From the NCBI GenBank assembly GCA_019056805.1, contig DXJG01000002.1, forward strand, positions 553,103 through 585,102: a stretch of 32,000 bases of DNA. The letters are read 5' to 3'. This document shows, one piece after another, positions 6,222-6,352 of the stretch; position 1 is the stretch's first letter, and each line of letters opens with the position of its first letter. A program made the translations under genes and the position numbers. Source of the DNA: Candidatus Baldrarchaeota archaeon. GTDB lineage: Archaea; Asgardarchaeota; Baldrarchaeia; Baldrarchaeales; DXJG01. The notes under the pieces are model-generated. The model did no database searches. It was not told where the DNA came from and saw nothing but the letters and a program-made list of their open reading frames with translations.

Positions 6222-6338
6222 ATGAACTGGAAAAAACTGATAGTGGTCGCCGCGATATTTGTGGCAATTATACTCTTCACCGCAACCGGCGTTGCTGCTT
6301 GGCCACAAAATGATCCATGGCCGTTTCCTGGAGGTTAA
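6222..6338 (+). CDS. 38-aa secreted-peptide precursor MNWKKLIVVAAIFVAIILFTATGVAA|WPQNDPWPFPGG (missed by the ORF track)
   Basis: GGCGAT SD-like motif 4 nt before ATG 6222; n/h/c-region signal peptide; three consecutive in-frame stops TAA TGA TAA (6336-6344); locally GC-enriched; downstream hairpins and T-tract. Confidence 0.75.
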   Translation: MNWKKLIVVAAIFVAIILFTATGVAAWPQNDPWPFPGG

Positions 6339-6352
6339 TGATAAGTTTCTGA

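Follow-up and report, generated by a model that had tools for sequence, protein, structure and literature searches.

Does a reading frame of only 38 codons in an Asgard archaeon encode a peptide that leaves the cell, and, if so, what might such a peptide do? True quorum sensing in archaea has been described in only three cases, one based on a carboxylated AHL and two in which the signal is unknown, and none of them is assigned to a gene-encoded peptide (PMC12240190, 2025). Our literature searches turned up no description of an archaeal signalling peptide that is encoded by a gene and secreted. The locus considered here is from the genome of a Candidatus Baldrarchaeota archaeon (1.92 Mb, 91% complete). 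The whole stretch of DNA that was analysed, termed the window, comprises 32,000 nucleotides of low GC content (about 35%). An earlier reading carried out with the letters alone (the sequence-only reading) had noticed in it an unannotated precursor which is almost all signal peptide, and had interpreted the product as a secreted signalling or antimicrobial peptide.

The ORF is present as described. The coding sequence of 38 codons is located on the plus strand from 6222 to 6335, and three stop codons follow, TAA (6336-6338), TGA (6339-6341), and TAA (6342-6344). The predicted precursor is tripartite ahead of a short tail. The n-region, M-N-W-K-K (6222..6236), has a net charge of +2. The h-region (6237..6284) is built from A, I, L, V, F, T, and S only. 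The c-region, T-G-V-A-A (6285..6299), carries a signal peptidase I site ahead of W27, predicted from the -3/-1 rule. The tail consists of the decapeptide W-P-Q-N-D-P-W-P-F-P (6300..6329) and a C-terminal Gly-Gly which, together with the three stops, occupies 6330..6344. The n-region, the c-region, and the 12-residue, Trp/Pro-rich tail ending in Gly-Gly had been correctly delineated; the hydrophobic core comprises 16 residues, not 14.

The ORF is unannotated, as had been stated. Four public records call both neighbouring genes and leave the ORF uncalled. A search of the protein database with an ORF extended to 42 residues returned no candidate and no entry, and Pfam, PADLOC, and Atlas hold no match for the peptide. 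The ORF is single-copy in its genome, in which the decapeptide motif occurs once.

Is the ORF a gene at all? Its appearance is of little help. Among 4,516 ATG-initiated ORFs of 30-60 codons in this genome a simple filter picked out 145 with a signal- or TM-like N-terminus, and a small-x-small site is also present in 50 of those. Because so many small ORFs of an AT-rich genome look signal-like, appearance alone is weak evidence for a peptide gene. For the same reason the reality of the gene rests on the comparison within one genus-level clade of related sequences.

This comparison comprises eight distinct variants, taken from the genome itself, two other genomes of the genus, one Baldrarchaeota MAG, and several metagenome contigs. 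At every orthologous locus the ORF is intact and begins with the same ATG, which is the only start codon common to all. In two lineages a stop codon is positioned two codons upstream of this ATG; therefore a longer form of the ORF is excluded. A profile search of 400 Asgard genomes returned real matches exclusively in the same Baldrarchaeia genus, the rest being weak, signal-peptide-like noise. The fourth genome of the genus (G003) lacks a match as the contig in question breaks off 99 bp past the start of the gene orthologous to the 533-aa regulator discussed below. The tail pattern has zero matches in viral contigs. Metagenome matches to the pattern on three high-GC contigs (L022, L024, L029) are embedded in frames of another kind, unrelated to the peptide, and were rejected as chance. 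Contigs from other studies, all of them DNA data, reach position 6211, and beyond it the peptide ORF is covered only by the run from which the genome probably stems.

Sequence conservation is distributed very unevenly along the precursor. Across the eight variants the mean pairwise identity is 76% in the n-region, 43% in the h-region, 66% in the c-region, and 89% in the decapeptide, the last value being above the 73-83% of the neighbouring proteins. The decapeptide reads WPQNDPWP[FV]P in seven of the eight variants and WPQKNPWPVP in the remaining one. Nei-Gojobori counts for six sequences, with all six frames compared, give the lowest pN/pS in the peptide frame: 0.34 for the whole ORF, 0.145 for c-region plus tail, and 0.088 for the decapeptide, where synonymous sites are near saturation (pS 0.64). 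For residues 1-22 pN is 0.31. Substitutions of the tail in the sense frame are predominantly synonymous (sd 54.5 vs nd 20.5). The sequence-only reading had proposed to search relatives for a conserved tail with synonymous changes, and this is precisely what the relatives display. The substitution pattern shows that purifying selection acts on the reading frame, most strongly on its C-terminal decapeptide. Judged by its conservation, the 38-codon ORF is a genuine, lineage-specific protein-coding gene for a precursor of 36-38 residues, and the decapeptide is the functional core of the product. Evidently, conserved mini-genes of Asgard genomes escape automatic annotation.

Several elements around the ORF which had been singled out earlier are present in the window and are not conserved. 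An SD-like GGCGAT (6212-6217) upstream of the ATG and the triple stop are confined to this strain and its nearest relative. The other orthologues have TGATGAT, TGATC, TGATG, or TGATA at the position of GGCGAT and carry a single stop codon. The residues which follow the decapeptide in the eight variants are GG, PG, GG, GR, P, P, none, and none. Two small hairpins 3' of the ORF (6353-6370 and 6377-6395) are not kept in orthologues, and the folding of the 3' region does not exceed that of shuffled sequences (z -0.62; 47 of 200 shuffles fold as well). The exception is a T7 run on the plus strand (6409..6415), which is kept in all orthologues and may plausibly serve as an oligo-T terminator of the archaeal kind. 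In four lineages, however, the run is at the same time the complement of the last Lys codons of a convergent 44-aa gene. A scan for promoters and terminators of the bacterial type gave nothing useful on the plus strand.

What is the fate of the N-terminal 26 residues? The n-region carries a charge of +1 to +2 in all eight variants, and all eight h-regions comprise 16-17 residues with a mean Kyte-Doolittle hydropathy of 2.7-3.6. The c-region of the family is [TS]-G-[VAT]-[AS]-A. Gly at -4 and Ala at -1 are invariant, position -3 is V, A, or T, and Trp, i.e., not Pro, is at +1; this corresponds to the signal peptidase I pattern. An archaeal signal peptidase I is encoded in the genome on contig C17 (TIGR02228, 109.5 bits, above the cut-off). 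The h-region is the least conserved segment and yet always hydrophobic, as is expected of an export signal and not of a functional transmembrane helix. Other export routes were considered and rejected. A class III (type IV pilin-like) signal requires a [KR]-[GAS] motif, which is missing as the n-region ends with K-K, K-R, or N-K directly before L or I. A lipoprotein or Tat signal is excluded since neither a Cys nor an RR pair occurs in any of the eight variants.

Taken together, these features make Sec export, with the tail positioned outside the cell, likely, and we hold this with moderate confidence. Cleavage after Ala26 is plausible; it would free a proline-rich, aminopeptidase-resistant peptide of 10-12 residues. 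The calculated monoisotopic mass would be 1396.62 Da for the 12-mer ([M+2H]2+ 699.32), 1467.66 Da with an additional Ala, and 1282.58 Da for the decapeptide. The chances for and against such a cleavage appear about equal, and the same balance applies to the complete sequence of Sec export, signal peptidase I cleavage, and release of the 10-12-mer. The earlier proposal of a Sec-type signal with an A-x-A-type site followed by a short tail is supported by these features. The antimicrobial role attached to it is not: the mature tail is anionic or neutral, with a net charge of about -1 predicted for the 10-12-mer, seven of the eight variants are devoid of Lys and Arg in this part, and no immunity or transporter gene adjoins the peptide gene. 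An antimicrobial peptide is thus unlikely.

The main rival to a released peptide is an uncleaved, single-pass membrane microprotein, oriented N-in/C-out, whose tethered decapeptide would contact the membrane or a surface partner at the outer face. The uncharged stretch from L6 to A26 comprises 21 residues and can span a membrane. Further, a positive-inside n-region is typical of membrane anchors, as is an interfacial Trp just outside the helix. Small single-pass regulators of such a size are common in bacteria. The conservation data argue weakly against this possibility, insofar as the hydrophobic segment is the part with the lowest identity and the tail that with the highest, and insofar as the signal peptidase I positions -1, -3, and -4 are conserved or invariant. 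In addition, a membrane protein is not among the conserved neighbours at the cassette loci. We regard a membrane-tethered form as a tentative alternative that deserves to be taken seriously. It would be a modest finding, i.e., a new lineage-specific small membrane protein.

The genomic surroundings are informative with respect to a potential function. At every locus with enough DNA the peptide gene is part of an invariant cassette: a divergent csa3-like gene, the peptide gene, a convergent gene for 44-51 aa, and the gene of a 533-aa regulator. This constant setting beside two regulators is the most telling line of evidence, and it had played no part in the sequence-only reading. A TATA-box-like element, TTTATCTA, is located on the plus strand at 6185..6192, 37 nt before the peptide ATG, and in orthologues TTTAxCTA is retained 35-37 nt ahead of the ATG. 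From this spacing, transcription would start a few bases before the ATG, resulting in a very short leader or a leaderless mRNA. Further upstream, in the promoter region common to the peptide gene and the divergent csa3-like gene, three AACNGTT palindromes are spaced by 20-21 nt (6123..6170, starting at 6123, 6144, and 6164). The window contains 19 matches to AACNGTT (10.1 +/- 3.1 expected), three of them within these 48 bp. In orthologues the palindromes are at about -100, -79, and -58 from the ATG with a variable central base, and one genome of the genus (G002) carries a fourth copy. Such an arrangement is likely to represent a phased operator, for which the three palindromes are the candidate sites. 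At ten distant Asgard loci a search upstream of the related regulator genes did not find the AACNGTT operator.

The convergent 44-aa gene (6520..6654, minus strand) is present at all loci. It encodes a K/E-rich helix and a hairpin motif, RIIVFKNGQI, and is without a match among known families; Pfam, PADLOC, and Atlas gave no match and a homologue search of the protein database returned the protein itself alone. Between the stop codons of the peptide and the 44-aa genes there are 181 nt in the window but only 43-58 nt at six loci. This strain and its nearest relative (L025) share an insert at about 6416-6519, which adds 130-200 nt between the two genes. Part of it is a G/C-rich hairpin with a T-run behind it on the minus strand (6488-6504), an arrangement which resembles a terminator for the 44-aa gene.

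The divergent neighbour (5425..6086, minus strand) is a Csa3-like regulator with a CARF and a winged-helix domain, which matches HFX_2341_N/Csa3_N. In this strain it is split by a frameshift at 5556-5559 into ORFs of 176 and 44 aa; all orthologues possess one intact ORF of 220 aa, which PADLOC matches to CARF3 from end to end (2.3e-27). Contigs from three other studies are identical across the break, thus the frameshift is real DNA and not an assembly slip. Read against the motifs of PMC8844856, the general phosphate-binding motif of CARF domains is kept (S-C-G-T-R) and the motif for adenine stacking that is specific to Csa3 is not (V-G-E-H-N-K-P). Two related lineages have a Cas6-like gene next to the csa3-like gene (L026, 4912-6723; L062, 2844-3866), in the former accompanied by a CRISPR array of 8 repeats with a spacing of 72-81 nt. 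There is no CRISPR array in the window, and the position of Cas6 is taken by unrelated genes, which encode an HTH-Yip1 protein and a secreted protein of 379 aa anchored at its C-terminus.

The second regulator (6941..8542, plus strand) comprises 533 aa and is modelled with high confidence by AlphaFold2 (pLDDT 93.9 for the whole protein and 96.7 for residues 1-175). Residues 180-500 form two Lrp/AsnC-like wHTH + RAM modules; the best matches are fused NirDL (E 1.2e-8) and many Lrp/AsnC regulators. Residues 1-175 adopt a zincin fold in the model, and all top structural matches are catalytic domains of zinc metallopeptidases, i.e., tricorn factor F3 (Z 10.0), puromycin-sensitive aminopeptidase (9.3), LTA4 hydrolase (9.2), and thermolysin (8.1). 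Foldseek reports the minigluzincin selecase as top match (probability 0.96, E 0.07). A profile of this domain searched against PDB sequences found only spurious matches to designed PPR proteins. With no match to solved zincins at the sequence level, the relation is one of fold only. The family has a motif, L-A-R-E-A-F, with a near-invariant Glu (E72) and no histidines, which putatively stands in place of HExxH. A peptidase fold devoid of zinc ligands and fused to DNA-binding modules could plausibly operate as a peptide sensor. When the 533-aa regulator and the precursor were predicted as a complex, the score was 0.17 and the mark 0.32, a result which speaks neither for nor against binding. The strand composition skew over this gene is very strong at 7001-9000 (GC skew 0.41-0.44, AT skew about -0.3), far above that of the neighbouring genes. 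Further downstream, the stretch 9484-11256 holds a SAM methyltransferase gene and, immediately behind it, a gene whose product has a CdhD-like domain and 4Fe-4S ferredoxin motifs.

The 533-aa family is by no means restricted to this genus. It was detected in 92 of the 121 Asgard genomes sampled, often in multiple copies. In 8 of 10 members tested the gene directly upstream on the same strand encodes an HFX_2341_N/Csa3_N CARF-wHTH protein. The same holds for a further locus (L070, 632-5957) with the order Csa3_N gene, 533-aa homologue, 409-aa gene, Piwi, and Cas2. At two others (L068 and L069) distant 533-aa homologues adjoin BrxC/BrxD-like AAA genes. Going by gene order, a CARF-wHTH gene and, behind it, a gene which combines a zincin-like fold with tandem Lrp modules make up an undescribed regulator pair that is spread across the Asgard archaea. 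In the genus considered here the comparison of loci indicates that this pair is split and that the peptide and the 44-aa genes are inserted between its halves. A filter search at 28 loci of the 533-aa family in other genomes identified no comparable small signal-bearing ORF. The family is widespread and lacks such an ORF at these 28 loci; this marks the peptide as a late, genus-level addition, which may be an output of the regulators rather than their ligand. It may also be an input, or both.

A mechanism which connects these components can be outlined as follows. The N-terminal 26 residues would operate as a Sec-type signal peptide. Archaeal signal peptidase I would cut [TS]-G-x-[AS]-A behind its invariant Ala and set free, outside the cell, a protease-resistant, slightly acidic, Trp/Pro-rich peptide of 10-12 residues. 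Speculatively, this peptide might be sensed either by a membrane receptor or, after import of the Opp type, by the zincin-fold domain; two Opp/Dpp-type binding proteins are encoded in the genome and could re-import a peptide. Such sensing might then close a loop on the operator shared with the divergent csa3-like gene.

Possibly the peptide acts outside the cell as a signal or ligand connected with the two regulators by which it is always flanked, and we put this forward tentatively. Such a role is suggested because of the shared three-palindrome operator and because the 533-aa neighbour combines a putative peptide-binding domain with DNA-binding modules. The complete circuit, in which the decapeptide would be re-imported and sensed by the histidine-less zincin-fold domain while the CARF sensor, which is of the cyclic-nucleotide type, would wire its production via the shared operator, is considerably less probable, and we consider it unlikely as a whole. 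If it existed, an intracellular alarm would have been turned into an extracellular peptide signal.

A less favourable explanation takes the product as a small peptide of a defence island which would act on membranes as an effector or toxin, controlled by the CARF regulator (of the cyclic-oligoadenylate type) and/or by antisense from the 44-aa gene in the manner of type I toxin-antitoxin systems. The neighbourhood lends itself to this idea: the csa3-like gene is next to Cas6 in two related lineages and close to a CRISPR array in one, distant 533-aa homologues are found beside Piwi/Cas2 or BrxC/D-like genes, and the closely spaced convergent stops of six loci are reminiscent of an antisense arrangement. 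The peptide does not. Toxic small peptides act via a transmembrane helix, which here drifts rapidly, and the part under selection is a polar, proline-rich tail. Moreover, a Cmr2-type Cas10 was not found with TIGR02577 in this 91%-complete genome, and the adenine-stacking motif specific for Csa3 is not retained in the regulator (motifs of PMC8844856). A toxin is therefore improbable.

Even less credible is the suggestion that the ORF has no functional protein product and that its conservation stems from an antisense gene, a regulatory DNA or RNA element, or the remnant of a longer gene. In its favour one may note that no gene caller called the ORF and that pN/pS is low in the antisense -1 frame, too (0.18 for the tail), in which an ORF of 45-65 codons is open in four lineages. 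This frame, however, shares its wobble positions with the sense frame, so that a shadow signal is to be expected. In the window and in the nearest relative the antisense frame is interrupted by a stop four codons before the conserved part, with no start codon in between; thus it cannot encode the conserved part in either, and the antisense ORF was rejected as the gene. Further, at positions which remain hydrophobic in the sense frame the antisense frame shows radical replacements, the substitutions of the tail are mostly synonymous in the sense frame, and Rfam matched no family anywhere in the window. We see very little room for a non-coding explanation. Finally, next to no credence can be given to the idea that the C-terminal Gly-Gly is used as in RiPPs, double-glycine leaders, or ubiquitin/SAMP. 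The sequence-only reading had listed the RiPP-like and the ubiquitin/SAMP-like version as an alternative while correctly stating the lack of an adjacent modifying enzyme. This strain and one other lineage do end in GG, but these are only two of the eight variants, and in one orthologue (G002) a TGA stop takes the position of the first Gly codon, GGA. No maturase, C39 peptidase transporter, or E1-like gene adjoins the peptide gene, and 38 residues are too short for a beta-grasp fold. With ends as variable as these, GG is not functional and all readings that depend on it fail.

The putatively secreted peptide is a credible candidate for an archaeal signal, with a signalling role that is attractive and suggested by its context. 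The locus is a testable candidate for such a signal in the archaeal group closest to eukaryotes. It defines a compact set of components: a peptide of 10-12 residues which can be synthesised, two candidate regulator proteins, and an adjacent operator.

How does the peptide compare with known systems? Like class I Sec signal peptides, the precursor is divided into n-, h-, and c-regions, has small residues at both -3 and -1, a Gly at -4 that would break the helix, and no Pro at +1, and comes from a genome with a signal peptidase I gene. It differs in that the passenger comprises only 10-12 residues and in that the h-region, with 16-17 residues, is at the long end, which makes a signal-anchor outcome possible. 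MgrB and AcrZ are small single-pass membrane regulators. The precursor resembles them in size, in a single hydrophobic helix with a short extracytoplasmic tail, and in regulated expression beside transcription factors; here, in contrast, the helix drifts, the tail is conserved, and there is no linked gene for a membrane partner. TxpA/RatA and BsrG/SR4 are type I toxin-antitoxin peptides with convergent antisense partners. They are similar in that a hydrophobic peptide of about 38 residues faces the 3' end of a convergent neighbour 43-58 nt away. Yet the tail of the Baldrarchaeia peptide is Pro/Trp-rich and not basic, its hydrophobic segment is unconserved, and the convergent partner encodes a conserved protein. 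Toxins of this class have a conserved transmembrane helix as their active part and usually a charged C-terminus; membership was rejected, as the helix is here the least conserved part and the tail is free of Lys and Arg in all but one variant.

The most instructive comparison is that with the pro-peptides of RRNPP systems from Bacillota and their phages (Phr, PapR, NprX, SHP, and AimP). These, too, are precursors of about 35-50 residues with a Sec signal and a short C-terminal peptide, and they likewise are encoded beside cytoplasmic DNA-binding regulators; Opp-type importers are present in the Baldrarchaeota genome as well. There is no sequence relation, and the host in the present case is an archaeon. 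A TPR receptor is missing according to Pfam and fold matches; instead, the neighbours are a CARF-wHTH protein and a protein with a zincin-like fold and tandem Lrp modules. Nor do peptide and regulators co-diversify as pherotypes: the tail is 89% identical among variants while the 533-aa proteins are 73-83% identical, and unlike the pherotype peptides of RRNPP systems the tail has not diversified between lineages. The peptide of Baldrarchaeia thus works, at most, like an RRNPP signal and is not a member of this family.
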